Origin: Mobula hypostoma
Taxonomy: Eukaryota
DNA: 64,000 nt
Assembly: GCF_963921235.1 (NCBI RefSeq)
Contig: NC_086097.1
Location: 21,578,001 to 21,642,000 of the forward strand
Reading direction: 5' to 3'
A program made the position numbers and the translations under genes. Below are positions 9,591 to 61,400 of this stretch, piece after piece. The notes under the pieces were generated by a model. The model saw nothing but the letters and a program-made list of their open reading frames with translations, was not told the DNA's origin and searched no databases. Position 1 is the stretch's first letter; every line of letters begins with the position of its first letter.

Positions 9591-11865
9591 TATCTGGTGG
9601 GGGATTGGATGGGGTGGAGGTCTTTGCATTAGGCTGGCTGCTTTACTGAATCAGTGAGAAATGAAGACACCACCCATGGAGAGGAGGCTGGTTTCCGTGA
9701 TGTGTGAACTGTGTCTGCAGCTCCCTGAAGTTTCTTGTGCACCCAGGCCGAGCAGTTGTCATACCAGGCCGTGATAGGTACATCCAGAGTGAATGTTTTC
9801 TACGGTGCGTTTATAAAAATTGGTGTAGGTCAATGGGCACATATCTGATTTCTTTCCTGAGGAAGTAGAGGCACTGGTGCACTTTCTTGACCATTGTGTC
9901 TACGTGGTTAGATCCAGGACAGATTATTTATTAATTGAGATACAGTGCAGAGTAGGTCCTTCCAGCCTAATTGTCACAGGACTATTTACAAAAACCAATT
10001 AACCTACCAGCCAGTACATCTTTGGACTGTGGGAGGAAACCAGAACACCCGGAGGAAACCCACGCAGTCACGGGGAGAATGTACAAACAAGCAGTGGCTG
10101 GAATTGAACCCAACACTGGTATTGTAAAGCGTGCTAACCACTACACTACTGTACTAATATTTACTCCTAGTAACTTGAAACTCTCATCCCTCTTAACCTT
10201 AGCACCACTGATATCAATAGGAGCATGTACACCACCCCTCTCCTGAACTCAGTGACCAGCTCTCGTGCTTTGCTGGCAAAAAGGTTGTTGTCATGCCATG
10301 TCACTAAACTCTCTATAACCTTTGACACTCTTACTAATTATTTATCAACCTCCACTTTAAATATACCCAATGACCAGCCTCCACAGCTGTCCGTGACGAT
10401 GAATTCCACCTTGTGGCTACAACCATTTTTCTTCATCTCTGTTCTATAAGAACATCCTTCTATTCTAAGGCTGTGCGCTTTGGTCCTAGACTTCCCACTA
10501 CAGGAAACATCTTCTCCACGTCCTCTCTGTCTAGGCCTTTCAATATTGAATAGGTTGAAATGAGATCTCATCTCATTTTTCTAAACTCCAGCAAGTACAG
10601 GCTTAGAGCCATCAAACACTACCCTTTCATTCTTGGGATCGTTTGACCTCCTTTGAAATATCTCCAATATCAGCACATCCTTCCTTAGATTGTGGTCTGA
10701 CCAATGGCTTCTAATTAGGAAATAAAATTAAAGTCTTTTGCCATTGAAGGCTAATCAGTGAACCCCCTTTCTCAACAACTCCTTCTGTTGTGCCACCTAG
10801 TGGAGAAGAGGAATGGTTTTGTCTGTGGGCCTGAGAAATCTTGCACACAAGGAGTGTACTTGGCTGGAACCACTTGTATGAAGAAATGTCTTGAGCAAGT
10901 GGAGAAAATTGGCAAGAAAGAAAGAAAATTGTAGTTAAAAGAAAAAACGTAATTTTGTAAATTAGGTTGGAAGCATTTTCAGTTTTTAGAAATGACATTT
11001 TTTAGCAGAAAATGTGACTCGAAATTTGAAAGAGAGCAGATGCTGGGACAGCATGCATTTGAACCGAGTTGGGTTAGCTACAGATAAATTGATAGCAGTG
11101 CTGATTAATCCTCAGAAAAATGCAGCTTGGAGATCTGTTTGCCTGCATAATAGATACTGTACATCAGATTAATTCATTATACATGGAGCTTTCTGAGATT
11201 CTCGCAGATGCACAGTGTGCCACAATATAAATGCAAATCTTCCCCCTTTATCTGTTTTGAAGCGGGAATGAAGGTTGCAGGTTTAGGGCAGATAAGTCAA
11301 ATGCTTCAGGGAACACAGTGCTTCCCAGTCACTGAGACCAAAAAGAAAATATTGGTGCTCTTCAAGTGTAATCCTCTCGGATAGAATAGTGGAGATTTCA
11401 GGATTAAGAAAATATTCCCTTCCTAAACCTCTTCTCTTCATTTCTCTCCCTAAATTAGAGATTGTGCTTTATGCAGAGCTGTCCAATGAAAATTGAATTG
11501 ATAAAGCAACTTGTATTTTACATACAATTAGTGTAAGGCGGAAAAGGCTCGATGGCACGGTAATGTAAAACACTTCACAGTTGGAGTGATCAGGATTTAA
11601 CTCCTGTCGCTCCCCATACAGAGTCTGAATGTTCTCCCTGTCACCATGTGGGTTCCTTCGAGTGCTTCTGCTCCCCCCACGTTCCAAAAGACAGGCACGT
11701 TAGTAAGTGGTGGGTATGCTTTGTTCAAGCCGACACTTGCGGTCTGCCCCGGCACATGCTCGGACTGTGTTGGTCGTTGATGCAAATACCGTGTGTTACT
11801 GTATGTGTTTATGCAGATGTGAGAAATACAGCTAATCTTTAATATTCAAGATCAAGATTGTTTAA

Positions 11866-12111
11866 CGCAGCAGGCCAGGCAGCATCTATAGGAAGAGGCG
11901 CAGTCGACGTTTCAGGCCGAGACCCTTCGTCAGGACTAACTGAAGGAAGAGTGCTCACACACTCACTCTTCCTTCAGTTAGTCCTGACGAAGGGTCTCGG
12001 CCTGAAACGTCGACTGCGCCTCTTCCTATAGATGCTGCCTGGCCTGCTGCGTTCACCAGCAACTTTGATGTATGTTGCTTGAATTTCCAGCATCTGCAGA
12101 ATTCCTGTTGT
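11866..12111. mobile_element. Young fold-back PLE insertion with perfect 90-bp inverted repeat and 14-bp TSD
   Basis: TSD tcaagattgtttaa at 11852-11865 and 12112-12125. Arms 11864-11953 and 11964-12053 are exact reverse complements with a 10-nt spacer. Confidence 0.9.
11979..12016 (+). ncRNA. Minimal hammerhead ribozyme motif (mirror copy on - strand at 11901-11938)
   Basis: tagtc CTGACGA a gggt ctcg gcct GAAA cg TC gactg. Intact core boxes, 5-bp stem I, stem II with CUCG loop, loop-less palindromic ACGT stem III. Predicted cleavage after C12011. Confidence 0.75.
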
Positions 12112-12264
12112 TCAAGATTGTTTAATGTCATTTCCAGTACACAAGTATAAAGGAGAACAAAATAATTGGTACCCCAGATCTGATGCAGCACAAATACACA
12201 ATAAAGATAAAGAACACAAAAATTAAAAAAAAACACAATAAATATAAATACATAAAATAGCTTA

Positions 12265-12331
12265 CAGTACTGTGCAAAAGTCTTAGGCACATATATATAG
12301 CTGGGGTGCCAAAGACTTTTGCACAGTGCTG
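12265..12331. mobile_element. 67-bp Tc1/mariner-type micro-MITE
   Basis: 26-bp TIRs cagtactgtgcaaaagtcttaggcac / gtgccaaagacttttgcacagtgctg (2 mismatches), TA on both sides. Second copy at 35383-35443. Confidence 0.8.
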
Positions 12332-12427
12332 TAGTAATTTTATGTATTGCACTGTACTGAAGCCACAAAAAAAACTGTGGTAAGAAGGTATGTGAAACCA
12401 CGGGGGGGGGGGGGGGGAGAGGACCTA

Positions 12428-16180: not shown

Positions 16181-16185
16181 AAATC

Positions 16186-18292
16186 GAGTTAAAATTGGCA
16201 TGTCGCAAAGGTAATGCTACAGTTGTTATGGGGGTTTTCAACTTGAAGGTAGACTGGAGGAATCAGGTTGGTACTGGACCCCAAGAAAGGGAGTTTGTGG
16301 AGTCTCTCCGAGATGGATTCTTAGAACAGCTTGTACTGGAGCCTACCAGAGAGAACGCAATTCTAGATTTAGTGTTGTGCAATGAACCGGATTTGATCAG
16401 GGACCACGAGGTAAAGGAGCCATTAGGAGGTAGTGACCATAATATGGTAAGTTTTAATCTACAATTTGAGAGGGAGAAGGGAAACTCAGAAGTGTCAATA
16501 TTACAGTTGAACAAAGGGAACTATGGTGCTATGAGGGAGGAGCTGGCCAAAGTTCAATGGAACAATACCCTAGCAGGGATGACAGTGGAACAGCAATGGC
16601 AAGTGTTTTTGGGAATAATGCGGAAGGTGCAGGATCAGTTCATTCCAAAGAGGAAGAAAGATCCTAAGGGGAGTAAGGGGAGGCCGTGGCTGACAAGGGA
16701 AGTAAAAGAGAAGAAGTATAACATAGCAAAGACGAGTGGGAAGCCGGAGGATTGGGAAACTTTTAAAGAACAACAGAAGGTAACTAAAAAGGCAATGTTC
16801 TATAGATTCAGAATCAGTTCCTGTGGATTGGAGGGTGGCTAATGTTGTCCCTGTCTTCAAGAAGGGAGGAAAGAGAGAAAACAAGGAATGATAGACCGGT
16901 TAGCCTGACGTCGGTGGTGGGAAAGATGCTGGAGTCAATTATAAAAGATGAAATTACGACACATCTGGATAGCAGTAAGAGGATTGGTCCGAGTCAGCAT
17001 GGATTTACGAAGGGGAAATCGTGCTTGACTAATCTTCTGGAATTTTTTGAGGATGTAACTATGAAAATGGACAAGGGAGAGCCAGTGGATGTAGCGTACC
17101 TGGACTTTCAGAAAGCCTTTGATAAAGTCCCACATAGGAGATTAGTGGGCAAAATTAGGGCACATAGTATTGGAGGCAGAGTACTGACATGGATTGAAAA
17201 TCGGCTGGCTGACAGAAAACAAAGAGTAGCGATTAACGGGTCCCCTTCAGAATGGCAGGCGGTGACCAGTGGGGTACCGCAGGGTTCAGTGCTGGGACCG
17301 CAGCTGTTTACAATATATATTAATGATTTAGATGAGGAAATTAAAAGTAACATTAGCAAATTTGCTGATGACACAAAGCCGGGTGGCAGTGTGAAATGTG
17401 AGGAGGATGTTATGAGAATGCAGGGTGACTTGGACAGGCTGGGTGAGTGGGCAGATGCATGGCAGATGCAGTTTAATGTGGATAAATGTGAGGTTATCCA
17501 CTTTGGTGGTAAGAACGGGAAGGCAGATTATTATCTAAATGGAGTCAAGTTAGGAAAAGGGGAAGCACAATGAGATCTAGGTGTTCTTGTACATCAGTCA
17601 CTGAAAGCAAGCATGCAAGTACAGCGGGCAGTGAAGAAGACTAATAGCATGTTGGCCTTCATGACAAGGGGAATTGAGTATAAGAGCAAAGAGGTCCTTC
17701 TGTAGCTGTACAGGGCCCTGGTGAGACCACACCTGGAGTACTGTGTGCAGTTTTGGCCTCCAAATATGAGGAAGGACATTCTTGCTATTGAGGGAGTGCA
17801 GCATAGGTTCACAAGGTTAATTCCCGGTTTGATGGGACTGTCATATGTTGAAAGATTGGAGCGACTGGGCTTGTATACTCTGGTATTTACAAGGCTAAGA
17901 GGAGATCTTATTGAAACATGTAAGATTATTAAGGGATTGGACACGCTGGAGGCAGGAACCATGTTCCCGCTGATGGGTGAGTCCAGAACCAGAAGCCACA
18001 GTTTAAGAATAAGGAGTAGGCCATTTAGAACGGAGTTGAGGAAAACCTTTTTCACCCAGAGAGTGGCGGATATATGGAATGCTCTGCCCCAGAAGGCTGT
18101 GGAGGCCAAGTCTCTGGATGCTTTCAAGAAAGAGATGGATAGAGCTCTTAAAGATAGTGGAATCAAAGGTTATGGGGATAAGGCAGGAACTGGATACTGA
18201 TTGTGGATGATCAGCCATGATCACAGTGAATGGCGGTGCTGGCTCGAAGGGCCGAATGGCCTACTCCTGCACCTATTGTCTATTGTCTATTG
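16186..18292 (+). mobile_element. CR1 LINE (EN end, internal deletion, RT, tail) inserted into the Gypsy gag
   Basis: ORFs 16195-16842 (PTRENAILDLVL, LGGSDHNMV), 16842-17573 (QGSVLGP, KFADDTK) and 17721-18200. Tail gggccgaatggcct..(tattgtc)n. Confidence 0.93.
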
Positions 18293-25969: not shown

Positions 25970-26860
25970 ATGAGGATAATCAAGTTCGCAGACGACACCA
26001 CGGTGGTTGGCCTGACAGAGGGGATGACGAGACGGCCTACAGGGACAAGGTCCAGCACCTGGCCGTGTGGTGTGCCGACAACAACCTGGCCCTTAACACC
26101 CAGAAGACCAAGGAGATCATTGTGGACTTCAGGCATGCTAGGAGCCACACTCACATCCCCATCTACATCAACGGTGCTGTAGAGCAGCATGTACCAAGCT
26201 TCAAATTCCTTGGTGTCCACATTTCCGAAGATCTCACTTGGTCCCTGAACTCCTCATCCTGATCAAAAAGACGCAACAGTGCCTTTATTTCCTGTGGAGC
26301 ATCAGGAAAGCTCACCTCTGTCCCAGGATACTGACGGACTTTTACCGCTGTACCATTGAGAGCATACTCACCAACTGCATCTCAGTGTGGTATGGCAATT
26401 GTCCCGTATCAGACCGCAAAGCACTCCAGCGTGTGGTGAAAACTGCCCAGCGGATTATCGGCACCCAATTGCCCACCATTGAGAACATCTACCATAAACG
26501 CTGCCTGGGCAGGTCGAAAAGCATTATCAAGGATGCATCTCACCCTAACCATAGACTTTTTACTCTCCTCCCATCCGGTTGGCGCTACAGGAGCCTCCGC
26601 TCCCGCACCAGCAGGCACAGGAAGAGCTTCTTCCCTGAGGCTGTGACACTGCTGAACCTCTCATCACAGCGCTAAGCAGTATTGCATCCATATTGTACTG
26701 TCTCAGTACTTTTATATTTGTGTGCTGTAGCACTTTTTATTCGCAGTTATTTTGTAAATAACAATATTCTTTGCATTTCTGGTTTGATGCTAACTGCATT
26801 TCATTGGCTTTGTATCTGTACTCGGCACAATGACAATAAAGTTAAATCTAATCTAATCTA
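25970..26860 (+). mobile_element. Rex1/Babar-type LINE, 5'-truncated young copy
   Basis: IIKFADDTTVVGL followed by the same C-terminal peptide as 8743-9590. (ctaat)n tail. Confidence 0.9.
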
Positions 26861-27328: not shown

Positions 27329-27487
27329 ATCACCCAGCTGTTTGCCAGCTTTGATGAAGCCCCCCTTGGTGCTGCGTCCTGGGCCCAGGTCCATAAAGCA
27401 GTTCTACACGATGGAAGGACGGTGGCGCTTAAAGTCCAGCATCCCAAAGTACAGAGCCAGTGTGCCAAGGATGTTGTTCTGATGGAG
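27329..27487 (+). CDS. ADCK1: Internal coding exon of aarF-domain-containing kinase 1 (UbiB/ABC1 atypical kinase), 159 nt, phase 0/0
   Basis: cttgacAG|ATC...ATG GAG|GTaaat splice sites. Translates without stops to ITQLFASFDEAPLGAASWAQVHKAVLHDGRTVALKVQHPKVQSQCAKDVVLME, which matches the vertebrate ADCK1 segment as I recall it (LFxSFDxxPLGxASLAQVHKAVLHDGRTVAVKVQHPKV), covering the A-rich loop and the catalytic Lys (VAxK). Confidence 0.93.
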
Positions 27488-27729: not shown

Positions 27730-29035
27730 CTTTACTAATCAAGAACCTCTGCTTTAAATATACCCAATGAATTGGTCTCCACAGCCATCTGCAGCAATGA
27801 ATTCAGCAGGTTCACAACCCTCTGGCTAAAGAAATTTTTCCTGATCTCTGTTCTAATGGGACGTCCCTCTATTGTGAAGCTGGTTCTAGACTCCCTCACT
27901 ATAGGTCAACATGTTCTCCAAATATTCAATATTTGACAGGTTTCAATGAGATCCCCCCCCCCACCCCATTCCTCTAAACTCCAGTAAGTACAGGCCCTGA
28001 GCCATCAAACGCTCCTCATAAGTTAACCCTTTAATTTCTGGGACTATTCTCATGAATCTCCTGTAGACCATCTCCAATGCGGCACTTGCTTTCTTAGATA
28101 AGGGGCTGAAGTCTGATCACAACACTCCAATGGGGGCTGACCAAAGCCTTATAAAGCCTTCGCATTACATTCTTCCTTTTATATTCTTGTCCTTTTAGAA
28201 TATAGGCTGGTGTCAGTTTTTAAAAACTAATCTTATTTATTTATTTATCGATCCATCCATCCATCCATGTGCAGTGTGGAATAAACCCTTCCGGTCCCTT
28301 GAGCAATGCCTCCCAGCAATCCTCTAATTTAATCTCAGCCTAATCATGGGACAACTTACAACGACCAATTAACCTACTAACCGGTACGCCTTTAGACTGT
28401 GGGAGGAAACCGGAGTACCCAAAGGTAACCTACATGGTCATGGGGAGAACGTAGAAACTCCTTACAGACAGTGGTGGGAAATCAACCCAGATTGCCTGCA
28501 CTGGAAAGCATTGTGCTAACCATGACACTACTGTGTTGCCCCTCTCAAAACGAATGCTAACATTGCAATTGCCTTCCTTACCACCGACTCAACCTGCAAG
28601 TTAGCCTTTATGGAACCCTGCACGAGGACTCTCAAGTCCTTTTGCACCTCTGATTTCTGAAATTTCTGAAAATAGTCTATGCCTTTATTCCTTCTATCAA
28701 AGTGCATGATCTAACGCTTCCCTGCACTGTATTCAGTCTGCCACTTCTTGGCCCATTCTCCTAATCTGTCCAAGTCCTTTTGCAGACTCGTAAACACAAA
28801 ATACTCTGCAGATGCTGGGGTCAAAGCAACACTCACAACACGCTGGAGGAACTCAGCAGGTCCGGCAGCATCCGTGGAAACGATCAGTCAATGTTTCGGG
28901 CCGGAACCTGAATACTGACAAAGGGTTCCGGCCCGAATCGTTGACTGTTCATTTCCACGGATGCTGCCCGGCCTGCTGAGTTCCTCCAGTGTGTTGTGAG
29001 TGTTGCTTTTGCAGACTCTCTGCTTCCTCAACCAT
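27730..29035 (-). mobile_element. CR1 3' fragment interrupted by a V-SINE (~28245-28540) and a fold-back PLE (28790-29005)
   Basis: Similar to the minus-strand CR1 copies at 23100 and 36705. Confidence 0.75.
28790..29005. mobile_element. Fold-back PLE insertion with 13-bp TSD
   Basis: TSD cttttgcagactc at 28777-28789 and 29006-29018. Arms ~28823-28908 and ~28924-29009. Decayed hammerhead ctgacaa agggttccggccc gaat cgtt gactg. Confidence 0.85.
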
Positions 29036-29052: not shown

Positions 29053-30140
29053 GCAACACACACAAAATGCTGGAGGAACTCAGTGGCCAGGCAGCATCTA
29101 TGGAAATGAGTACAGTGGACGTTTCGGGCAGAACTGGAGAAAAGATGAGGAGTCAGAGTCGGAGGATGGGGGAGCGGAGGGAGAAGTACAAGGTGATGGG
29201 TGAAACCTGGGTGCGGGGGAGGTGGGAGTAAAGAGCTGGGAAGTTGATTGGTGAAAAAGATACAGGGCTGGAGAAGGGGGAATCGGATAGGAGAAGACAG
29301 AAGGCCATGGAAGAAAGAAAAAGGGGGGGAGGAGCACCCGAGGAATGTGATAGGCAGGCAAGGAGATATGGTGAGAGAGGAAAATGGGAATGGAGAATGG
29401 TGAAGGGGGGAAGGGCATTACTGGAAGTTTGAGAAATCAATGTTCATGCCATCAGGTTGGAGGCTACCCAGATGGAATATAAGGTGTTGTTTCTCCAACC
29501 TGAGTGTGGCCTCATTGAGGCAGTAGAGGAGGCCATGGACTGACATGTCGGAATGGGAATGGGAAGTGGAATTAAAATGTGTGGACACTGGAAGATCCCA
29601 CTTTTTTTGAGAAGCGATCTTGCAATGTACAGGAGGCCACACCGGGAGCACTGGATACAGTAGATGACCCCAGTAGACTCACAGGTGAAGTGTCACCTCA
29701 CCTGGAAGGTCTATTTGGGGCCCTGAATGATAGTGAGGGAAGAGGTGTAGGAGCAGTTATAGCTCTTGTTCCGCTTGCAAGGATAAGTGCCGAGAGGGAG
29801 ATCAGTGGGGAGGGATGAATGGATAAAGGCGTTGCGTAGGGAGTGATCCCTGCGGAAGGCAGAAAGTGGGCAGGAGGGAAAGATGTGCTTGGTGGTGGGA
29901 TCCCACTGGAGATGGTGGAAGCTACGGAGAGTTATGTGTAGAACGTGGAGGTTGGTGGGGTGGTAGGTGAGGACGAGGAACTCTATCCCTGGTGGGGTGG
30001 CGGGTGAAGTGGTGAGGGCAGTTGAACACGAAATGGAAGAGATGCGGTTGAGGCTAGCATTGATGGTGGAGGAAGGGAGGGTCCTTTCTTTGAAGAAGGA
30101 GGACATCTCCTTAGTTCTAGAATAAGATGCCTCATCCTGA
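29053..30140 (-). mobile_element. Penelope-like retroelement 3' portion: post-RT linker, GIY-YIG endonuclease C-terminus, 3' pLTR region
   Basis: LVLTYHP..HLQWDPTTKHIFP..AFRRDHSLRN..GTYPC, and PVSTHFNS..H..LRLEKQHLIFHLGSLQPDGMNIDF* (ORFs 29711-30238, 29418-29651). Downstream sequence matches the fold-back inserts. Confidence 0.85.
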
Positions 30141-30499
30141 GAGGAGACGGAGGTATTGCACCTGTTAAATACATCCTGGGCAGAAAAGAGTTGTTTGCTG
30201 TAAGTCTGTTTTCCACATCTTGGTCCATGGCCTTGCACTTTAAGTCCTTGGCCAGCTACTCCTTAAATATGCAAGGGGTTTTGCCTTTCAACAGTAGGTT
30301 CTAGACTGCCACTGCCCTCTTTGCAAACAGATATTCCTCAAATCCCCTTTGAACTTTCTACTATCTGTAAACCTTTGCCCACTGGTTATTGAATCATTTT
30401 TTTCACGGCTAGAACTTTCCAAGCCACTCTGTCTAGGTCTCTTCTTGGTACTAAATCTTCCCTCAATAAATCTTCTCTCACCCTCCTCTGCCACAAGGA

Positions 30500-32746: not shown

Positions 32747-34700
32747 CAGGTGTCCCCCGTTTTTCGAACGTTCGCTTTACGACACCTCACTGTTATGAAA
32801 GACCTACATTACTTAATTGTTTTCGCTAACAGAAGGTGTTTTCACTGTTACGAGAAAAGGCAGCGCGCGATAAAAGGCAGGTGCGATAAAAGGCAGGTGT
32901 GATAAAAAGCAGCGCGCGCCCTGAGCAGCAAAGCTCCTCCCCCGGAACTGCATTCTAGCTGGCATTGCTTAAATACGTGCCTGTGAGCATTTGTGCTTTA
33001 TGTCGATTTATTTTGAGCATCCGTTAGCAAGATGAGTTCTAAGGTATTGGAAAAGCCTAAAAGAGCTCGTAAGGGTGTTACATTTAGCGTAAAACTAGAC
33101 ATAATTAAGCGTTTCGATCGTGGTGAACAAAGTAAGGACAAAGTGAGTTTGGCTTGTGGAAGTTGACGAAGATGATAGTCATAGTCATAATCATAGTCAT
33201 ACTTTATTGATCCGGAGGGAAATTGGTTTTTGTTACAGTTGCACCATAAATAATTAAATAGTGATAAAACTATAAATAATTATATAGTAATATGTAAATT
33301 ATGCAAGGAAATAAGTCCAGGACCAGCATATTGGCTCAGGGTGTCTGACCCTCCTAGGGAGGAGTTGTAAAGTTTGATGGCCACAGGCAGGAATGACTTC
33401 CTATGACGCTCAGTGCTGCATCTCGGTGGAATGAGTCTCTGGCTGAATGTACTCCTGTGCCCAACCAGTACATTATGTAGTGGATGGGAGACATTGTCCA
33501 AGATGGCATGCAACTTGGACAGCATCCTCTTTTCCGACACCACCGTGAGAGAGTCCAGTTCCATCCCCACAACATCACTGGCCTTACGAATGAGTTTGTT
33601 GACTCTGTTGGTGTCTGCTACCCTCAGCCTGCTGCCCCAGCACCCAACAGCAAACATGATAGCACTGGCCACCACAGACTCGTAGAACATCCTCAGCATC
33701 GTCCGACAGATGTTCAAGGACCTCAGTCTCCTCAGGAAATAGAGAGTAGAGATGTTGAAGAGGTTTTGGCATCCCATGACCAAGAACTGATAGATGAAGA
33801 GCTGATGCAATTGGAAGAGGAAAGGATAACAATCGAAACCGAATGCAGTAGTCATCCAGGAACTGAACGTGAAGCAACTGCGTGAGATCTTCGCTGCAGT
33901 TGACAACGCTGCAATGATTGCAGAAGAGTACGACTTTAATTTTGAAAGGCTACATCCGTTTAAGGGATATTTGCAGGATGGTTTGAGTGCTTACAAAGAA
34001 CTATATGATAGAAAAATGTGCGAGGCTAAGCAGTCAAGCGTACCCTCGTTTTTCAAGCCTTCCACATCAGCCACAGCAGACAACGAACCTCGACCTTCAA
34101 CATCGAGGCAGGCAGACATAGAAGAAGAGACCTGCCTGCCCTGATGGAAACAGATGACGATGAGATGACACCCCAGTGTCCCACCACCCCAACCTCTGAC
34201 GACTCAGCCTAACACACCATCATCAGTGTGCTCGTTGTCTTCCTGATTCCGGTAAGCGATACTACACTGTACATACATTATTTCTACTTTATATAGGCTG
34301 TGTATTTTTATGTGTTATTTGGTATGATTTGGCAGCTTCATAGCTTAAAGGTTACTGGGGAGAGTGCTTCTGCTGAGAGCGCTTGTACCGAGTGTTTCTG
34401 CCGAGAGCGCTTGCGTGAGATTTTCGCTACGGTGGACAGTGCTGCAATGATTGCAGAAAAGTATTTCTACTTTATATAGGCTGTGTATTTGTCATATCAT
34501 TCCTGCTTTTGCTATATGTTACTGTTATTTTCGGTTTTATGTGTTATTTGGCATGATTTGGTAGGCTATTTTTTGGGTCTGCGAACGCTCACAAGTTCTT
34601 CCCATATAAATAAATGGTAATTGCTTCTTCATTTTATGACATTCCGGCTTACGAACCGTTTCATAGGAACGCTCTACCTTCGGATGGAGGGGGAAGCCTA
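32747..34700 (+). mobile_element. Internally deleted Tigger/pogo DNA transposon
   Basis: TA-flanked ends caggtgtcccccg / ggagggggaagccta. ATG 33032 gives MSSKVLEKPKRARKGVTFSVKLDIIKRFDRGE (CENP-B-type HTH start), joined to the acidic C-terminus DVEEVLASHDQELIDEELMQLEE..YKELYD..KQSS..SFFK. No DDE domain. Confidence 0.8.
33176..33747 (-). mobile_element. Rex1/Babar-type LINE 3' fragment nested in the Tigger
   Basis: LYFLRRLRSLNICRTMLRMFYESVVAS..SFLPVAIKLYN. (atgact)n tail. Confidence 0.85.
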
Positions 34701-35443: not shown

Positions 35444-38400
35444 TATGCACTTTGATAAGAAGTATAATTTGAACTTTGAACTTTTGATTCAATCATGAAC
35501 CTTCCATGTAGGGCATTGTCAGATACCTTCCTAAAACCCATGTAAACTACATAAAAGTGTTATCCTCCTAAGTCTGCTTTTTGTTATCACCTGAAAAAAA
35601 TCATTCAATTTAGTTTGATGTGACCTTGCCATCACAAATCCTTACTGAATGTCCTTGCCCATCTGAATGCTGATAAATACTCTTCCTTGGAAGTTTTCCA
35701 GAAAAATTGTCCACTATTGACATTGAATTCAGTGGCCCAAAATGACTTGATTTACTCTAATCTGCATTTCTGAACAGTGCTGTATTTGCTGTCTTCTGAT
35801 CCCGGGCCAAGAAGCCTCCAGCCAAAGAGGGCTGGAAAATTATGTTTAGAGTCCTGCTCTTTCCCCCCCGCTTCTCTTAAAAGGCTGCCTAAAATCTGCG
35901 AAACCCCTTTAATATTTTTCTTGCTTGCCTTGCCTGTCTTATCTAATGTTTCACTATCTCTTCATTAACTACATCATATACTACATTTTCCACTTGAACA
36001 GACAAGTGCAAAGTGCTCGTTAAGAACCCATATTCCCGTCTGCATATGCAGATTACCTTTCATTCTTTCATAGCTCCTACTCTTTCCTTTTGTTCTTTAT
36101 GTTTGTAATACTTAATTTAGTTCCCTTTTATTTTCTGTGCCTCTGTTCGAGTTCATGAATTTCTTTAGCTCTTCGCTCCTGCATTATCTATACTTCTGAA
36201 TACAGAATTGACCTTGGTATATAGAATATGCTTCAAAGTTCAAAGTGCATTTATTATCAAACAATGCATAAATTATACAACCTTGAGATTTGTTTGTTTA
36301 CAGGCAGCCGCAAAACAAGAAACCTGAAAAGAACCCAATTTAAAAAAATAAAGACCAACCCCCAATGCGCACAGAGAAAGAGAGAAAAAAACGCAAATCG
36401 TGCAGAATGTAGAAGCGAGGAACAGCATCAGCATTCCGAACCAAAATGAGTCCTCAATCTAAATCCCCCAGAGCAGTCTGGAGTAGGCCCAAAGCCCCGG
36501 TATTCAATTCAATATGCTTATCATGTATGCTGAATTTTATCCTATATCTCCCTTGGCATCTCTGCATCTCTAGATTTGATCCCTGGTACCAGTTTGAATT
36601 AATTTGCAAATATATTTTCTTTGAACCCTTGCTATTAAAGTGCCTACTGTGGTGGTGATGTCGACGCATTCAAGGATCTGTTCCCAGTCCAGTTTTAGAC
36701 AACAAGGTGTAGGAGCAGAAGTAGGCCATTCAGCCCATCAAGTCTGCTCCACCATTCAATCATGGGCTGATCCAATTCTTCCCGTCATCCCCACTCACTG
36801 GCTTTCTCCCCATAACCTTTGATGCCCTGGCTGATCAAGAACTTATCTATCTCTGTCTTAAATGTACCCAATGGCTTGGCCTCCACTGCCACTCGTGGCA
36901 ACAAATTCCACAGATTTACCACCCTCTGTAACTTCTCCACTTCTCTGTTCTAAATGGACGTCCTTCAATCCTGAAGTCATGCCCACTTGTCCTAGACTCC
37001 CCTACCATGGGAAATAACTTTACCATATCTAATCTGTTCAGGCCTTTTAACATTCAAAATGTTTCAGTGAGATCCCCCCTCATTCTTCTGAACTCCAGGG
37101 AATATAGCCCAAGAGATGCCTCATGTTCCTCATACGGTAACTGTTTCATTCCTGGAATCATTCTCGTGAATCTTCTCTGAACCCTCTCCAATGTCAGTAT
37201 AACCTTTCTAAAATAAGGGCCCCAACGCTGCACACAATACTCCAAGTGGGGTCTCATAAGTGCCTTATAGAGCCTCAACATCACATCCCTGCTCTTACAT
37301 TCTGAACCTCTAGAAATAAATGCCAACATTGCATTTGCCTTCTTCACCACTGACTCAACCTGGAGGTTTACCTTCAGGGTATCTTGCACAAGGACTCCCA
37401 AGCCCCTTTCCATCTCTGCATTTTGAATTCTCTTCCCATCTAAATAATAGTCTGTCCATTTATTTCTTCCACCAAAGTGCACGTCCATACACTTTCCAAC
37501 ATTGTATTTCATTTGCCACTTCTTTGCCCATTCCCCTAAACTATCTAAGTCTCTCTGCAGGCTCTCTGTTTCCTCAACACTACCTGCTCCTCCACCTATC
37601 TTTGTATCATTGGCAAATTTAGCCACAAATCCATTAATCCCATAGTTCAAATCATTGACATATGTCATAAAAAGCAGTGATCCCAACACAGACCCCTGTG
37701 GAACTCCACTGGTAACTGGCAGCCAGCCAGAATAGGATCCCTTTATTCACACTCTCTATTTTCTGCTGATCAGCCAGTGCTCCACCTATGCTACTAACTT
37801 CCATGTAATTCCATGGGCTCTTTTCTTGCTAAGCAGCCTCATGTGTGTCACCTTGTCAAAGGCGTTCTGAAAATCCAAGTACACCACATCTACTGCATCT
37901 CCTTTGCTTGTAATTTCCTCAAAAAAATTGCAGTAGGTTAGTCAGGCAGGATTTTCCTTTCAGGAAACCATGCTGGCTTTGGCCTATTTTGTCATGTGCT
38001 CCAGTTATTCCGTAATCTCATCCCTAGCAATTGATTCCAACAACTTCCCAACCACTGATGTCAAGCTAACAGGCCTATAGTTTCCTTTCTGCTGCCTCCC
38101 ACCCTTCTTAAATAGCGGAGTAACATTTGCAATTTTCCATTCATCGGATACGATGCCAGAATCTATTGATTCTTGAAAGATCATTGTTAATTCCTTCACA
38201 ATCTCTCCAGCTACTTCCTTCCAGACCCGAGGCTGCATTCCATCAGGTCTAAGAGATCATTAAGCTTCCTGATCATCTTCTCAGTCGTAATTTTCACTGC
38301 ACATACTTCACTTCCCTGACACTCTGGAATATCCGGTATACTGCAGATGTCTTCCACTGTGAAGGCTGATGGAAAATACACATTCAGTTCCTCTACCATC

Positions 38401-51166: not shown

Positions 51167-52704
51167 ACTTACAATGACCAATTAACCTACCAACCAGTAT
51201 GTCTTTGGACTGTGGGAGGAAACTGGAAGGAACCCATACAGCCACGGGGAGAACATACAAACTCCTTACAGACCGCGACAGGAATCGAACCCGGGTCGCC
51301 TGTACAAAGTGTTGTGCTAACCATTATGCTACCGTGCCGCTCCACGGTTGAAAGAGATAACAAATCAGCCATGGTATAATAGTGGAGCAGACTCGATGAG
51401 CTGAGTGACCTAATCCTGCTCTTACTGTAAATTCCATGCAGACAGCACCCAAGGGATAAGATCAAACCCAGCTCACTGGAGCTGTGAGCACGGCCTTCTA
51501 CCCTACCACTCACTAGGGCTGGTTGCAACTGTTTGAAACACAAAGTTGAGTGGAGCTGTGATTCCTGTATTCTGCTAATTTCCGTGTGTTGCTTATCTAT
51601 TGCTATGGTTAATAGTCTGAGAGTGGTGCGTATGATTAGATCATAAAAGCCTAACAGGCATCAATTGGAAGGCCAAATTAAATTCATAGTCATTGAACTG
51701 TGTCCTTGGATAGCAACAGCTAAGGTAATTGGGATTTAATACTGGCTATTCTGATTTAATTAATATATTGTTAGAAGCATAATCACTTACCTTTTTGATC
51801 TCTGTTAAATAAAGAGTTGCATTTTGTTACACAAGCGGTTTGCTTGCTCATATATATTCAAAACCTTGTTGTTATGCCAGCAATCAGTATTCATGATTAG
51901 CTTGAACTTCTGCATTATTTTGCAGATGTAGAGGCCAGTAAAGGGTCAAGTAGTGTTGTCTGTGTGTGCTGGACATCTGTGTGAATACCCCTTGCCATTT
52001 TTCTCTGATGAAGTGTCTTAGTCCAAGATGTATCCATCGATGCTACCTGACTTGCTGAGTTCCTCCAGCACTTTTTGTGTGCTACTCTGGATTTCCTGCA
52101 TCTGAAGAATCGTTCTTTTTGTATTTATTGCAATGTTATGGCTTTGTTATTGGGTTAGCAATCCAGGGGCCTGTGCCAGTCATCTTGTGAATACAGCTTC
52201 AAATCCTACCACAGGAGTTTGTGATTTTGAATTTGGGAACACAGACTGATGATACTCTCTGGCTTCGAGTCCATTCATTTCCATTGTAAGCATTGACTAA
52301 CGCTGTCCTCGCTTATCCGTGGCTCCATTTCTTCATCCATCCTTTGCTGCCTGGAGCTCCCACCATGCACCTCTCACAAAAAATACAGAGTTCACATAAC
52401 TTCAGGCTGGAGTTCAGGCCTGTCCAGGCTGGAGCTCCGTCCATGCACCCCCCCCCCCCCAAAATAAAACTGGAGTTTATTTGAAACTCTTCCGTTGTAT
52501 TTGTCATAACCTATGGTTGTTGACATTTTTTGGCCTCACTGTTTCCAACCATATCCCCAGTCCCCTGTCATCCAGTTCAGTCCCATTTCCCCTCTTGGTG
52601 CCTTTCACTCCCACACGCGACCTACTGCATCTCGTATCCACATCCCCGGTTGGCTTCATCGGCATCTCATCCCTCCTTTATTTGGTTCCTCATATCATCT
52701 TCCA

Positions 52705-53099: not shown

Positions 53100-54895
53100 G
53101 ACTCTTGTGTCTCCACTTAATATCTTCTTCTATCTTTCCCTCCCCCATCTGCTGTTTGTTTTTATTTATTTGTCCCAGCTATCACCCACCAGCCACTTTG
53201 TCCCCACTCCACATCCCCCCCCCCCCGCTTCCTGGTTCCATCTGGCCATCAACTGGTTCCACCTATCACCTTCCAGACCCTGCCTTATCCTTCACTCTTC
53301 ACACTTTATACTGATTATCTCCCCTCTACACTCTTGGTCCTGATGCAGGCTCTTGGCCAGAAACATTGCCCACTCCCCTGCCTCCGCAGATACTGGCTGA
53401 CTCGTTGAGTTCACCCAGCAGTTTGGTTGTTGCGCCAGTTTACAGCTCTACAGTCTCTTGTGTCTACAGCGAACTATCAGTTTTCATTCAAAGTGACAAC
53501 AAGACAACTTCAAAAGGACTTGAATGAAATTCAAAATGATGCAAATGCAGGAAATCTGAAATATATGCAGAAAATACCAGAAATGCTCAATAAGTCAGGC
53601 AGCATCTGTGGAGACAGAACAGAGTTAACATTACAGGTGTTCCCGCTGCTATCTGTAAGGAGTTTTACGTTCTCCCTGTGACTGTGTAGGTTTGCTTAAG
53701 ATAGTTTAATGCCATTTCCAGTATGCACATTTAAAGAAGATGAAATAATTGTTAATCCAGATCCAATGCAGCATGAAAAGAAACACAATAAGGCAAAGAA
53801 CACAATAATAATAAAAAAACAAAATAAATATAACTACATAAGGTAGTTTATATACATAAATAGTAGGTGCTCCTGTTTCTTCCCACTTTCCAAAGACATA
53901 CAGGTGAGTAGGTTAGTTAGTCACAAAGGTATAATTTGTTTGCACGGGCTCACTGGGGCAGAAGGGCCTGTCACTGTGATGTGGGAAGAAAAGCAAATAG
54001 ATGAAAGTCAGTTGTCGGAACTGGAGAAGGGGGAAACCGAATAGGCTGTAGGTTGCAAAGAGGGTGGGCCAAGGGAGTATATGTGATGAAGTGAGCCCAA
54101 GGTTGCTGTGGAGATAAGATGGCCACCTGAGTAATGGATAAATGGTGGCAGTGAGAGAGGAGCAAAGGAACGAAAAAGCTGTAAGAAGAGGGAAATGAGA
54201 GAGAGGAAGAACACAAACAAAGGAATTGAAAAGGTAATGCACACACATACAAAATGCTGGAGGAACTCAGCAGGTCAGGCAGCATCAATGAAGAGGAATA
54301 AAGAGTCGATGTTTCGGGCTGAGAACCTTCATCAGGACTCAAAGCACTCCAGACCTTAGAGTTCCAGTCAAATAAGTTAACCGTTGTAGAAATACAGTAA
54401 AAACATGTTTCCAACAATAACAATGTCTTACATGCCTTCAGTGTACTGATATAAAGGTGTAAAGTTAACACGGCCTGACCTGCTGGGCATGTCCACAAGC
54501 CTGAGTGTTACAATTGTTTTAGAGCTTCTGTGTTCCTTTACCCAGTTTCTCTCTTGCTGACTATTCCCTTTTACCAGATGGCCTTGCTTGCAGATTGCCA
54601 CAGGGCCTAACCCTATACCAGATCTCCCCTTTGCCCTCTCTCCCCCAACTTCTCTATACTTTATACCGATTATTTTCTCTCTTTCCCAGTTCTGATGAAA
54701 GCTCACCGACATAAAACATTGATGCCACTTCTCTTTCAGCAGCTTAAGGAGTATCTGTAAAACCACAAGAGGTTCTGCAGTTGCTGGAAAATGTTGAACA
54801 ACATACACTAAATCCCAGAGGAACTCAGCAGGCTAGGCAGCAGCAATGGAGGAAAATGAGTAGTCAGCATTTTGAGCAGAGATACTTTATCAGTT
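53100..54895. mobile_element. Cluster of decayed PLE 3'-terminal fragments in alternating orientation
   Basis: Repeated aaatgctggaggaactcagcagg..cagcatc motif and degenerate ctgatga..gaaa cores (~53340, 54303-54340, ~54692). Similar fragments at ~2580-2720, 25375-25500, 47985-48090, 52000-52110 and 57540-57650. Confidence 0.65.
54303..54340 (-). ncRNA. Hammerhead motif copy (PLE family 1)
   Basis: gagtc CTGATGA aggttctcagccc GAAA ca TC gactc. Perfect 5-bp stem I, weakened stems II and III. Confidence 0.55.
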
Positions 54896-55147: not shown

Positions 55148-57392
55148 CACCAAGTGAACACCAGAGACATCACCCAGCAAACACCAGAGACATCACCGAG
55201 CGAACACCAGAGACATCACTGAGCAAACACCAGAGACATCACTGAGCGAACACCAGAGACATCACCAAGCGAACACCAGAGACATCACTGAGCGAACACC
55301 AGAGACATCACCAAGCGAACACCAGAGACATCACCAAGCAAACACCAGAGACATCACCAAGCAAACACCAGAGACATTACCAAGCAAACACCAGAGACAT
55401 CACCGAGCAAACACCAGAGACATCACCAGGCGAACACCAGAAACATCACCGAGCAAACACCAGAGACATCACCGAGCAAACACCAGAGACATCACTGAGT
55501 GAACACCAGAGACATCACCGAGCGAACACCAGAGACATCACCGAGCGAACACCAGAGACATCACTGAGTGAACACCAGAGACATCACCGAGCAAACACCA
55601 GAGACATCACCAAGCAAACACCAGAGACATCACTGAGTGAACACCAGAGACATCACCGAGCGAACACCAGAGACATCACTGAGTGAACACCAGAGACATT
55701 ACCAAGCAAACACCAGAGACATTACCAAGCAAACACCAGAGACATTACCAAGCAAACACCAGAGACATCACTGAGTGAACACCAGAGACATCACCGAGCG
55801 AACACCAGAGACATCACCCAGCAAACACCAGAGACATCACCAAGCAAACACCAGAGACATCACCAAGCAAACACCAGAGACATCACCAGGCGAACACCAG
55901 AAACATCACCGAGCAAACACCAGAGACATCACCGAGCGAACACCAGAGACATCACTGAGTGAACACCAGAGACATCACCAAGCGAACACCAGAGACATCA
56001 CTGAGTGAACACCAGAGACATCACCAAGCGAACACCAGAGACATCACCGAGCAAACACCAGAGACATCACTGAGTGAACACCAGAGACATCACCAAGCAA
56101 ACACCAGAGACATCACCAAGCAAACACCAGAGACATCACTGAGTGAACACCAGAGACATCACCGAGCGAACACCAGAGACATCACCCAGCAAACACCAGA
56201 GACATCACCAAGCAAACACCAGAGACATCACCGAGCAAACACCAGAGACATCACTGAGCAAACACCAGAGACATCACTGAGCGAACACCAGAGACATCAC
56301 CGAGCAAACACCAGAGACATTACCCAGCAAACACCAGAGACATCACCGAGCAAACACCAGAGACATCACCAAGCAAACACCAGAGACATCACCGAGCGAA
56401 CACCAGAGACATCACCGAGCGAACACCAGAGACATCACCGAGCGAACACCAGAGACATCACCGAGCAAACACCAGAGACATCACCGAGCAAACACCAGAG
56501 ACATCACCAAGCAAACACCAGAGACATCACCGAGCAAACACCAGAGACATTACTGAGCAAACACCAGAGACATCACTGAGCGAACACCAGAGACATCACC
56601 AAGCAAACACCAGAGACATCACCCAGCAAACACCAGAGACATCACTGAGTGAACACCAGAGACATCACCGAGCGAACACCAGAGACATCACCGAGCAAAC
56701 ACCAGAGACATCACTGAGCGAACACCAGAGACATCACCCAGCAAACACCAGAGACATCACTGAGCAAACACCAGAGACATCACCGAGCAAACACCAGAGA
56801 CATCACCTAGCAAACACCAGAGACATCACCGAGCAAACACCAGAGACATTACCGAGCAAACACCAGAGACATCACTGAGCGAACACCAGAGACATCACCG
56901 AGCAAACACCAGAGACATCACTGAGCGAACACCAGAGACATCACCGAGCAAACACCAGAGACATCACTGAGCAAACACCAGAGACATCACTGAGCGAACA
57001 CCAGAGACATCACCGAGCGAACACCAGAGACATCACTGAGCGAACACCAGAGACATCACCGAGCAAACACCAGAGACATCACTGAGCGAACACCAGAGAC
57101 ATCACCGAGCAAACACCAGAGACATCACTGAGCAAACACCAGAGACATCACTGAGCGAACACCAGAGACATCACCGAGCGAACACCAGAGACATCACTGA
57201 GCGAACACCAGAGACATCACCGAGCAAACACCAGAGACATCACTGAGCAAACACCAGAGACATCACCAAGCAAACACCAGAGACATCACCAAGCAAACAC
57301 CAGAGACATCACTGAGCGAACACCAGAGACATCACCAAGCAAACACCAGAGACATCACCAGGCGAACATCAGAGACATCACTGAGTCAACAC
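55148..57392 (+). repeat. 23-bp minisatellite, ~97 units, consensus aacaccagagacatcacYRagYR
   Basis: First aacacc at 55157 and last aacact at 57388 are exactly 97 x 23 apart. ORFs 55775-56008 and 55959-56579 are translations of the repeat. Confidence 0.97.
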
Positions 57393-57929
57393 TGGAGGGC
57401 AGCGTTGACGGGCCTCCAGGGACAAAGTTTCAGTCCTGACCTCTGACACAACTCATGTGGAAGTTTGCAACTTCTCCCTGTGACCACGTGGATTTCTTCG
57501 AACATCCCAAAGGCATTGTAGTTGGCAGGTTAATTTTCAAAGAGTCCCGATGAAGGGTTTCAGCCTGAAATGTTGACTGTTCATTTCTGTCCAAAAGTGC
57601 TGCCTGACCTGCAGAGTTCCTCCAGCATTTTTGGTGTATTGAATCTGTGGAACTGTTGCAGAAAGTAGTTCAAAGTTCAATGTACATTCATTGTTAAAGT
57701 ATGTATATGTCACCGTATGGTACCTTGAGTTTCTTTTTCCTGTAGCCATTCACAGTGGGACAAGGTACTACAACAGAGTTTATAAAAATCATGCAGAACA
57801 AAGCCTGACAAAGAGCCAAAGTGCAAAAGAGGACACTAATAAATTAAAATAAATATTATTGAGAACATGAGGTGTAGATTCCTTGAAAGTGAGTCAATAG
57901 GTTTACAGCACAGTATCAGGGCCTTCTGA

Positions 57930-58451: not shown

Positions 58452-61400
58452 CACTAGACACTAGAACACTACAGCACAGTACAGACCCTTCGGCCCTTGA
58501 TGTTGTGCTGACCCATATATTCCTTAAAAAAAGTACTAAACCCACACTACCCCGTAACCCTCTATTTTTCTTTCATCCATGTGCCTGTCCAAGAGGCTCT
58601 TAAATATCGCTAATGTTTTAGCCTCCACCACCATCCCTGGCAAGTCATTTTAGGCACCCACAACCCTCTGTCTAAAAAAATTACCCCTGATGCCTACCCT
58701 AAACTTCCCTCCCTTAACTTTGTACATATGCTCTCTGGTGTTTGCTATTCGTGCCCTGGGAAACAGGTACTGACTATCCACGCTATCTATGCCTCTTATA
58801 ATCTTGTAGACCTCTATCAAGTCCCCTCTCATCCTTCTACACTCCAAAGAGAAAAGTCCCATCTCTGCTAACCTTGCCTCATAAGACTTGTTTTCTAATC
58901 CAGGCAACATCCTGGTAAATCTCCTCTGCACCCTCTCCATAGCTTCCACATCCTTCCTGTAATGAGGTGACCAGAACTGAACACTCTTCTGGTCTCACCA
59001 GAGATTTGTAAAGTTGCAACATGAACTCTCTACACTTGAACTCAATCCCCCTATTAGTGAAGCCTAGCATCCCATTGGCCTTCTTAACTATCCTATCAAC
59101 CTGTGCAGTGACCTTGAGGGATGTATGGATTTGAACCCCAAGGTCCCTCTGTTCATCCACACTCTTAAGTAACTGACCATTAACCCTGTACTCAGCCTTC
59201 TGGTTTGTCCTTCCAAAATGCATCACCTCACACTTACCCGGATTGAACTCCATCTGCCACTTTTCTGCCCAACTCTGCATCCTGTCTATATCCTCTTGTA
59301 ACCTTCGACAACCTACAACTCCATCCACAACTCCTCCAATCTTCGTGTCATCCACAAACTTACTCACCCATCCTTCCACCTCTTCATCCAGGTCATTTAT
59401 AAAAATCACAAAGAGCAGGGGACCCAGGACAGATCCTTGCTGCACTCCACTAGTCACCGACCTCCAGGCAGAACACTTTCCTTCCACTACTACCCTCTGC
59501 TTTCTTCCTGTAAGCCAATTTTTTATCCAAACAGCCAAGGTTCCACTGATCCCATGCCTCATGACTTTTTGGATGAGTCTCTCATAGGGGACCTTGTCAA
59601 GTGCCTTGCTAAAATCCATGTAGACCACATCTACCGCCCTACCCTCGTCAATTTCTTTTGTTACCTCTTCAAAAAACTCAATTGGGCTCATGAGGCATGA
59701 CCTTCCCTTCACAAAGCCATGTTGACTATCCTTGAGTGGACTGTACTTCTCCAAATGCTCGTAGACCCTATCCCTAAGAATCCTTTCCAATAGTTTGCAG
59801 ACCACCGAGGTAAGACTCACTGGACTATAGTTCCCAGGATTCTCCCTATTACCTTTTTTAAAGAAGGGAACTACATTTGCCAATCTCCAACCTCCGGCAC
59901 CTCCCCTGCAGCCAAAGAGGATTCAAAGATCATAGCTACTGCTCCAGCGATCTCTTCTCTCACTTCCCACAGCAACCTGGGGTATATCATATCCGGCCCT
60001 GGGGACTTATCAATCCTGATGTTTTTAAGAAGATCCAACACTTCTTCCTTAATCCCTACATTGTCCAGCACACAGGCCTGTTCTATTTTGACCTCACCCT
60101 GATCAAGGTCCTTTTCACTTCTGAATACTGAAGCAAAGTATTCATTTAGGACCTCCCCAACCTCCTCTGCCTCCAGGCACATGTTGCCTTCTTTATCCTT
60201 TAGTGGTCCCACCTTCATTCTTGTCCTCCTTCTGTCCTTCACATACGCATAGAACGCCTTGGGGTTCTCCTTAATCCTACATGCCAAGGCCTTCTCATGC
60301 CCCCTTTGAGCTCTCCTAAGTCCTTTCTTAAGCTCCTTACAGTTCTCATGAGCCCCTCCTGCTTCCTGCTTCTTATATCTAACATATGCTTCCTTCTTCC
60401 TCTGACAATTTGCCTCACGTGTTTCATCAGCTGCTGTTCCCTTTTCCTACCATTTTTTCTTTGTCTCAGTGGGACAAACCTAGCCTGAACCCAGTACAAG
60501 TGGTCCCTAAACTTCCTCTATATTACTTCTGTGCCTTGAACATGTTTCCAATTTACTCTCGCTAGTTCCTGCCTCACAGTTAGCCCTTCCCCAGTTAAGC
60601 ACTTTCCCATTCTGAATGGTTTTTATCCTTTTCCATAGCTATGCTGAAGCTAAGGGAGTTGTGGTCACTCTCACCAAAATGCTCCCCCACCAAGAGGTCT
60701 GCCACCTGACCAGGCTCATTACCCAGAACTAGATCCAGTATGGCCTCTCCTCTGGTCGGCCGGTCCACATACTGTGTCAGGAATCCTTCTTGAGCACACC
60801 TGACAAATTCAGCCCCATCTATCCCCCTTGCAGTCAGGAGGTGCTAGTCAATATGAGGGAAGTTGAAATTGCCCATAACTACACTGTATTTCCTGCACCA
60901 TTCTAAAATTTGCCTGCTTATCTGCTCCTCGGTGTCCTGAGGGCTATTTGGGTGCCTATAGACTACTCCCAGCACAGTGATTGATCCCTTCCTATTTCTG
61001 ACTTCCACCCACACCGACTCAGTGGACACTCCCTCTGCAGCGTCCTCCCTTTCTATAGCCGCGATACTATCCCTGACCAGTAATGCTACTCCCCCCACCC
61101 TTTCCTACCTCCCATCCTATACCTTTTAAAACACCTAAACTCCGGTACCTGCATCAGCCAATCCTACCATCCCTCCAGCCAAGTTTCAGTAATGGCCACA
61201 ACATTGTAGTTCCATGTACTGATCCATGCTCTAAGTTCATCCCCTTTATTCCTAATACTCCTAGCGCGGAAATAGACATATTTCAACCCTTCTAACTGGC
61301 TACATTCATATCTTGTCCCCTGCCTGTCCGTCCTCACCAACTCAGAACACATAGCATCATGCCCTTGTCCTTCTATCCTAATCTCTGCATTCACATTCTG

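Follow-up and report, generated by a model that had tools for sequence, protein, structure and literature searches.

A probably functionless fold-back insertion of a Penelope-like element in an ADCK1 intron of a ray

The insert and its host intron

The window analysed here, a stretch of 64,000 nucleotides, lies within ADCK1, a gene that spans ~715 kb (G000:C1:21299724-22015060) and has introns of up to ~190 kb. On the plus strand of this contig, 10 collinear places match an ADCK1 protein from a ray. The exon that precedes the insert described below is at G000:C1:21495997-21496224 (plus strand, by the ray protein mapping), and the next exon, at 27329-27487 on the plus strand of the window, is 98% identical to stingray ADCK1. 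The insert is found in the sense strand of ADCK1 in the intervening intron of ~109 kb, ~94 kb downstream of the previous exon and ~15.2 kb upstream of the next exon's acceptor. An intronic location in the ADCK1 sense, as given in an earlier note on this DNA, is borne out by the exon matches and the protein mapping; short ADCK1 motifs located no exon, and Pfam and the ray protein did. Just left of the insert, positions 11540-11840 carry decayed SINE-like sequence, which may resemble elasmobranch tRNA-derived SINEs.

A target duplication of 14 nt, TCAAGATTGTTTAA, occurs on the plus strand at 11852-11865 and again at 12112-12125, with an insert of 246 nt between the two copies. Positions 11864-11953 and 11964-12053 are reverse complements without mismatch (90 of 90), separated by a loop of 10 nt, and the last 2 nt of the left duplication are common to the left arm. 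The target is the head of an older high-copy repeat, into which the right duplication runs on and which continues at 12126, according to depth and loose ends at 12111-12181. A motif and repeat scan reproduced all the coordinates that the earlier note had given for arms, loop, duplication, insert, hammerhead boxes and the cut at C12011.

We number element positions from C12011 as 0, the last nucleotide before the predicted hammerhead cut. On this scale the insert combines the last 151 nt of an element (-50 to +100) with an inverted copy of -47 to +42, a filler of 7 nt lying between the two. The long-ended copy (11961-12111, plus strand) comprises the pseudo-LTR end, a hammerhead and a one-sided tail, the last at about +67 to +100 (12078-12111, plus strand), between the family's two 3' end points. 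The short-ended copy of the element's 3' end (11864-11953, minus strand) lacks the tail. The filler (11954-11960) is not collinear with the element and by its appearance may be a slipped repeat of the adjoining CTCAC; the junction of which it is part occurs once in the 3.48-Gb genome when searched as an exact pattern. Immediately 5' of helix I of the hammerhead, the plus strand at 11962-11981 carries a motif (CTCAC, a pyrimidine run, CAG, TAG; TCAGTT) that we take, against consensus motifs, to be splice-acceptor-like and initiator-like. This motif coincides with the hotspot for 5' ends of the family described below.

The two arms are identical to one another, as are the two duplications, and across the 151 nt of the long arm only two sites depart from what most sampled copies have, both of them polymorphic in the family. 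Perfect arms are not rare, and were found in 8 of 37 fold-backs. In a relative, the match of one contig (run X5, record 17) to 11400-11865 contains 15 differences; it ends with the left duplication, leaving 9 letters unmatched. This match end suggests that the relative probably has an empty site and that the insertion is younger than the split corresponding to ~3% divergence of the flank. The identical arms, the two polymorphic-site differences and the stopping of the relative's contig at the left duplication all agree with the youth that had been claimed for the insertion.

The element family

In the genome searched (3.48 Gb in 200 contigs), a 41-nt word from the hammerhead has 26,613 exact copies and a 25-nt word downstream of it has 69,329, with no copies of either control (the reversed word in the case of the hammerhead). 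Exact patterns were used because the 148-nt arm matched nothing as a DNA query, since very common words are skipped. Longer copies are 94-98% identical to the insert across the common part. They extend upstream, through a pyrimidine-rich 3' region and into a frame with reverse transcriptase (RT) motifs, a C-x4-C-x2-C linker and a GIY-YIG nuclease. The Pfam match of the linked ORF to GIY-YIG (PF01541; E 1.9e-4) scores 22.1 bits, just below the cut-off of 22.6, and the motif is visible. Upstream of the nuclease, the RT motifs GRPIVS, MDV.SLYT, QTKGVAMG and YIDD were recognised by eye as putatively Penelope-like; Pfam gave no RT family at E<=0.05 in either of the two RT-bearing pieces. The zinc-finger-like linker CKRNKCYTC is present in all six translated long copies, once with a conservative change, and such a motif between RT and nuclease is common to Neptune and Nematis (Craig et al., 10.1101/2021.04.23.441226).

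Judged by these sequences, the element is an endonuclease-bearing Penelope-like element (PLE), Neptune-like or Nematis-like by its linker, for which we use the label "Neptune-like". The frame with RT motifs and GIY-YIG in longer copies supports the Penelope-like origin that the earlier note had proposed. In two copies (L128 and L005) the ORF stops ~330 nt upstream of the hammerhead, and the hammerhead-bearing pseudo-LTR thus follows the ORF. The longest copy traced (L012 with L127) ends within the RT, and a full-length copy is absent from the sample.

The hammerhead and its folding

A minimal type I hammerhead was located at 11980-12015 on the plus strand by motif scan and comparison with the description in PMC4209133. 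It has boxes CTGACGA (11984-11990) and GAAAC (12004-12008), a loop-less palindromic ACGT helix III, and a helix I of 4 bp that pairs 11980-11983 with 12012-12015; cleavage is predicted 3' of C12011. The core elements CUGANGA, GAAA and NUH are all present, as are the palindromic helix III and the bulge, an A, before helix II. Helix II is closed by G10.1·U11.1, and not by the G-C pair that characterizes minimal type I hammerheads and is termed highly conserved in PMC4209133. This is usual in the family, where 61 of 77 sampled copies have T at 11.1. The core that had been called intact is therefore so in its core letters and not in the closing pair of helix II. The scan also found the mirror hammerhead at 11902-11937 on the minus strand, with its core starting at 11933 on that strand. 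A hammerhead on both strands is thus present as claimed, but it is not noteworthy, since any inverted copy gives a mirror image.

Matches to the motif exceed chance, because reversed control patterns gave 0-1 matches genome-wide, compared to hundreds to tens of thousands. A check of the Infernal type with hammerhead models, which the earlier note had suggested, gave a negative outcome: an Rfam scan returned no hammerhead family at E<=10, and hammerheads were absent among its 16 weak matches.

In RNAfold, which takes no account of tertiary contacts, the fold of the entire insert has an energy of -208 kcal/mol and a pairing probability of ~0 for helix I. The expectation that the ribozyme would be paired with its own antisense arm is therefore upheld in this folding model. 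The lone right arm prefers another hairpin and forms helix I with a probability of 0.003. From the layout, the antisense arm emerges first whichever strand is transcribed. Single minimal hammerheads did not cleave in vitro and dimers cleaved weakly (PMC4209133), 8 of 9 dimers from Xenopus showed no cleavage (10.64898/2026.07.22.740005), and the Anolis hammerhead required protein and was dispensable for insertion (PMC11167929). There is little to silence, because the lone arm hardly folds the ribozyme and single minimal hammerheads are inactive (PMC4209133). Silencing of the ribozyme by the opposite arm holds in the model, yet is probably moot. The idea of the hairpin as a remarkable silencing device was not sustained, as it is a routine product of the family whose lone arm hardly forms the ribozyme anyway.

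Sister fold-backs

Fold-backs account for at least 11 of the 26 distinct insertions among loci L001-L030, a floor, as the flanks fetched were 1.5 kb. Over sampled loci totalling ~0.17 Mb we found 52 fold-backs, 51 of them with both ends inside the fetched DNA. About half of these 51 were chosen via a pattern for tight apexes, and the others lie within the initial 10 Mb of a single contig. The pairing of their ends follows a rule. Fifty fold-backs, this insert included, combine one long and one short end, one has two short ends and none has two long ends. Long ends lie at +95 to +104 and short ends at +28 to +76, mostly +57 to +76, these end points being BLAST extensions that may overshoot by a few bases. 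The median target duplication is 14 nt. Apexes, arm lengths and fillers vary among fold-backs of the family, and many apexes are tight and lie on inverted microhomologies of 2-6 nt.

Nineteen fold-backs are lopsided, with 5' ends separated by 15 nt or more; in 11 of them the tail-less arm extends further 5', and in 8 the tail-bearing arm does. In each of the 11, either arm has sequence that is missing from the other, and therefore neither arm can have been copied from the other at the DNA level. Comparing arms within insertions gives 8 discordant bases at 125 non-CpG diagnostic positions, and comparing insertions with one another gives 3,296 of 6,219 (53%). This within-insertion discordance is nevertheless about six times that at invariant positions (39 of 3,499; Fisher p 1.6e-4). 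In one fold-back (L024) the arms differ at all three diagnostic sites.

Other arrangements were also seen. Three plain short-ended copies (L084, L119 and L074) have 5-17 nt beside the duplication that by eye resemble an inverted element end, and possibly reflect an aborted second priming. Locus L038 (G000:C2:25270608-25273641) is a fold-back followed by approximately four head-to-tail units of 76 nt, each with a hammerhead; this small array is retrozyme-like and could form dimers. A short partial tandem is found at L102.

A hotspot for 5' ends

To map where copies stop, we used 88 copies picked by the downstream word in the first 3.7 Mb of contig 1, leaving out 7 of 100 listed places. Among the 74 copies at risk, 24 end between -20 and -35, a rate of 0.020 per nt; 14 of the 24 are inverted and 10 are plain. 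The rate elsewhere is 0.002-0.006 per nt downstream, 0.009 at -36 to -50, and 0.001-0.005 beyond. Genome-wide patterns of equal size detected 2,065 tight fold-backs at -25 to -31, and other windows gave 277 (+1 to +7), 228 (-10 to -16), 442 (-36 to -42) and 167 (-46 to -52, this insert among them), counts whose pattern 10-mers are unequal in CpG content and subfamily reach. The fold-back joints that occur in short-read contigs of X1 and X5 are likewise most frequent at this place.

The hotspot corresponds to the 5' edge of helix I and the acceptor-like and initiator-like motif. In Penelope of Drosophila virilis an intron ends at helix I (PMC4209133) and the promoter is within the pseudo-LTR (PMC2377424). 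Joining at the hotspot may be promoted by a mini-palindrome, GTC-CT-GAC, at -30 to -23, yet this leaves the plain copies unexplained. Spliced copies were considered as the origin of ends near -30 and were not seen: in 12 copies inspected, what directly adjoins the 5' end is either the duplication or a small number of filler bases.

An accumulation of 5' ends at the hammerhead cut is mostly rejected, given that 2 of 88 copies end at +1 and that tight fold-backs there number 277 against 2,065. By eye, approximately 23 of the 50 junctions listed at +1 to +7 have their centre precisely at the cut. The cut is a natural 6-nt palindrome with which these junctions coincide, and the evidence for a small cleaved fraction among templates is therefore ambiguous. 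Because ends lie upstream of the cut, RT normally reads through the hammerhead cut site.

Formation of the fold-back

We consider it quite probable that the insert is a young, dead-on-arrival, 5'-truncated insertion of a Neptune-like, endonuclease-bearing PLE, that it folded back in one event, and that it has no function. The GIY-YIG nuclease of the element would nick both target strands ~14 nt apart, and both 3' ends would then prime RT on element RNA, one at a far site (+100, with the tail) and the other at a near site (about +66). In this insert, the near-site end would have been trimmed further, to +42. Both cDNAs would pass an uncut or religated hammerhead and halt early, here at -50 and -47, and their free 3' ends would be joined through the 7-nt filler. 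The two arms would usually be templated by one RNA or one source locus, hence their identity. In ADCK1 pre-mRNA the antisense arm would be made first and the sense arm would zip onto it, leaving the ribozyme unable to fold, and an antisense transcript would behave likewise. We propose that the hairpin, 90 bp long and intronic, is a neutral by-product and one among thousands.

The 11 of 19 lopsided fold-backs with private sequence in both arms favour two RNA-templated priming events over snap-back of a cDNA. Dual priming also fits, by analogy, the behaviour of a Penelope-like protein from Anolis, for which cutting and extension of both strands, two internal starts bounding the tail and the use of uncut RNA are described (PMC11167929). 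In the Anolis system the choice of start site was equal between strands (PMC11167929), and so the strict combination of long and short ends in the ray (long with long in 0 of 51) needs an extra assumption. The scatter of short ends (+28 to +76), and the end at +42 here, point to trimming. A more comprehensive reading, which we hold tentatively and at somewhat less than even chances, is that fold-backs arise by dual priming in which the two target strands always take different start sites, for the most part on a single RNA and in some cases on two, and that RT reads through the cut and stops 20-35 nt upstream. The template's 5' end would then derive from a transcription start in the pseudo-LTR, splicing or a structural stop, and not from self-cleavage, and the youngest subfamily would thrive with a weakened ribozyme.

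Self-priming, in which one cDNA or an antisense RNA (PMC3846280) snaps back and a nuclease trims one arm at the tail boundary, is a possible though rather unlikely alternative to dual priming. It accords with arms that nearly always have the same subfamily haplotype and with the many tight apexes on microhomologies, and it could explain the tight cases, this insert included. Palindromic junctions have been interpreted in this way (PMC3846280), and Craig et al. attribute the tail to nuclease-mediated resolution (10.1101/2021.04.23.441226). However, self-priming does not readily accommodate the lack of a fixed polarity, since the tail-less arm is longer 5' in 11 of 19 lopsided cases, with private sequence in each arm, and the tail-bearing arm in 8. 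Also difficult for it are the diagnostic-site discordance at six times background and the plain copies L084 and L119, in which 5-10 nt beside the duplication resemble, by eye, an inverted tail end.

The remaining alternatives concern what the hairpin is and does. In a functional reading, the antisense arm would silence a ribozyme that is otherwise active, and Dicer or ADAR would act on the hairpin with an effect on ADCK1; this reading gains some appeal from a perfect 90-bp hairpin in the sense strand of an intron and from the folding model, which buries the ribozyme completely. We regard it as very unlikely, because equivalent hairpins number thousands, the insertion appears, from the end of the contig match, to be absent in a relative diverged by ~3%, the lone arm hardly forms the ribozyme in RNAfold, and 10.1-11.1 is a G·U pair. 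The published inactivity of single minimal hammerheads and weakness of dimers (PMC4209133), the 8 of 9 uncleaved Xenopus dimers (10.64898/2026.07.22.740005) and the protein dependence of the Anolis hammerhead (PMC11167929) likewise argue against function. Contigs of uncertain type in run X15, the one run that may derive from RNA, are swamped by sister copies of the family. Inverted arms flanked by a target duplication, together with numerous related small hairpins, might instead suggest a MITE-like or retrozyme-like mini-element, a hairpin able to propagate itself and to move as one unit. Many copies with common termini and a common internal junction were not seen, and apex, arms and fillers vary by copy. 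The junction of this insert is unique, and therefore the hairpin arose at this site and did not move as a unit. The arms also fail to reach both termini symmetrically, and a head-to-tail array is absent at the locus; we thus consider a mini-element extremely improbable. Perfect palindromes can be created during library preparation, none of the contigs listed for run X1 spans 11852-12125, and none of the listed contigs or reads bridges the locus. The chance that the insert is an assembly artefact from a read fold-back is nevertheless practically negligible, as a read fold-back cannot produce a duplication of 14 nt, a filler of 7 nt and ends whose inequality obeys the family rule. Moreover, the long and short asymmetry matches 49 other insertions, and fold-back joints of the family occur in short-read contigs of the separate runs X1, X5 and X9.

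Comparison with known systems

The locus itself is ordinary and represents a known and frequent outcome of PLE integration; the statistics of sister copies are the informative part. Inverted, 5'-truncated pseudo-LTRs with a one-sided tail of 30-40 nt and a target duplication are described for Penelope/Poseidon, Neptune and Nematis (PMC3846280; 10.1101/2021.04.23.441226). Like these canonical insertions of endonuclease-bearing PLEs, the insert has a head-to-head copy, a tail at one end, a short duplication, a pseudo-LTR hammerhead and heavy 5' truncation. Unlike them, it has very small arms and retains no ORF, and the family is very abundant in the ray. Minimal type I hammerheads in PMC4209133 share the core letters, the short helix I, the bulged base and the palindromic, loop-less helix III, although the ray copy has G10.1·U11.1 where they have a conserved G-C, and the ribozyme is here a prediction from sequence. 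Pairs of minimal hammerheads on opposite strands, 100-700 bp apart, were already noted in that paper.

The reaction proposed for the family resembles that of Poseidon PAc of Anolis in the two internal starts that bound the tail, the cutting and extension of both strands, and the use of mainly uncut RNA as template (PMC11167929). PAc belongs to another clade, however, and in the text consulted that paper describes neither fold-back products nor start sites that pair in a fixed way. Non-LTR retrozymes (10.64898/2026.07.22.740005) are similarly non-coding hammerhead derivatives of PLE pseudo-LTRs and occur in a cartilaginous fish too. They are head-to-tail, dimer-capable arrays, whereas this insert is a pair of copies arranged head to head and incapable of forming a dimer.

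Formation of inverted ends and tails in PLEs, and the role of the hammerhead, have been called unresolved (10.1101/2021.04.23.441226; PMC11167929; PMC4209133). In the openly accessible texts that we covered, no statement was found of a pairing rule, of dual priming or of a hotspot in PLEs. For both the rule of one long and one short end and the 5'-end hotspot, the present analysis gives counts. The ray genome, which has more than 26,000 near-identical copies, makes such questions countable without bench work: how ends pair, which haplotypes the arms have and where 5' ends fall are all imprints left directly by the integration reaction. One consequence is that ray introns are strewn with long RNA hairpins whose pairing is almost perfect.

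LINE-1 elements form 5' inversions by twin priming. There too, both target strands prime cDNA, and an inverted segment lies between duplications. The two arms in LINE-1 copy different parts of the RNA, whereas those of this insert copy the same stretch, giving a palindrome.

Other repeats in the window

An older, diverged fold-back of a related subfamily is found at 397-992, with its long end on the left and its short end on the right, and is ~85-88% identical to the young insert. Decayed short fold-backs of related Penelope-like ends are present at 28805-29005 and 61484-61601. Single related copies occur at 29053-29132, 52036-52110, 53334-53453, 54241-54339, 54765-54893 and 57543-57639, and a fragment of a decayed Penelope-like ORF lies on the minus strand at 29711-30262. 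Broken RT frames of LINE type, which we presume to be CR1/L2-like on the basis of motifs, are at 16183-18200, 37054-37746 and 58879-60446, and at 26142-26675 and 33280-33990.

Positions 12263-12333 contain a 28-nt inverted repeat (93%) around an AT-rich spacer. This sequence is high-copy in sequencing runs and by its appearance could be a small MITE-like element; its Rfam matches to microRNAs are weak and far under thresholds. A long tandem repeat with strong AT skew occupies 55959-57400, and several of its registers are open.
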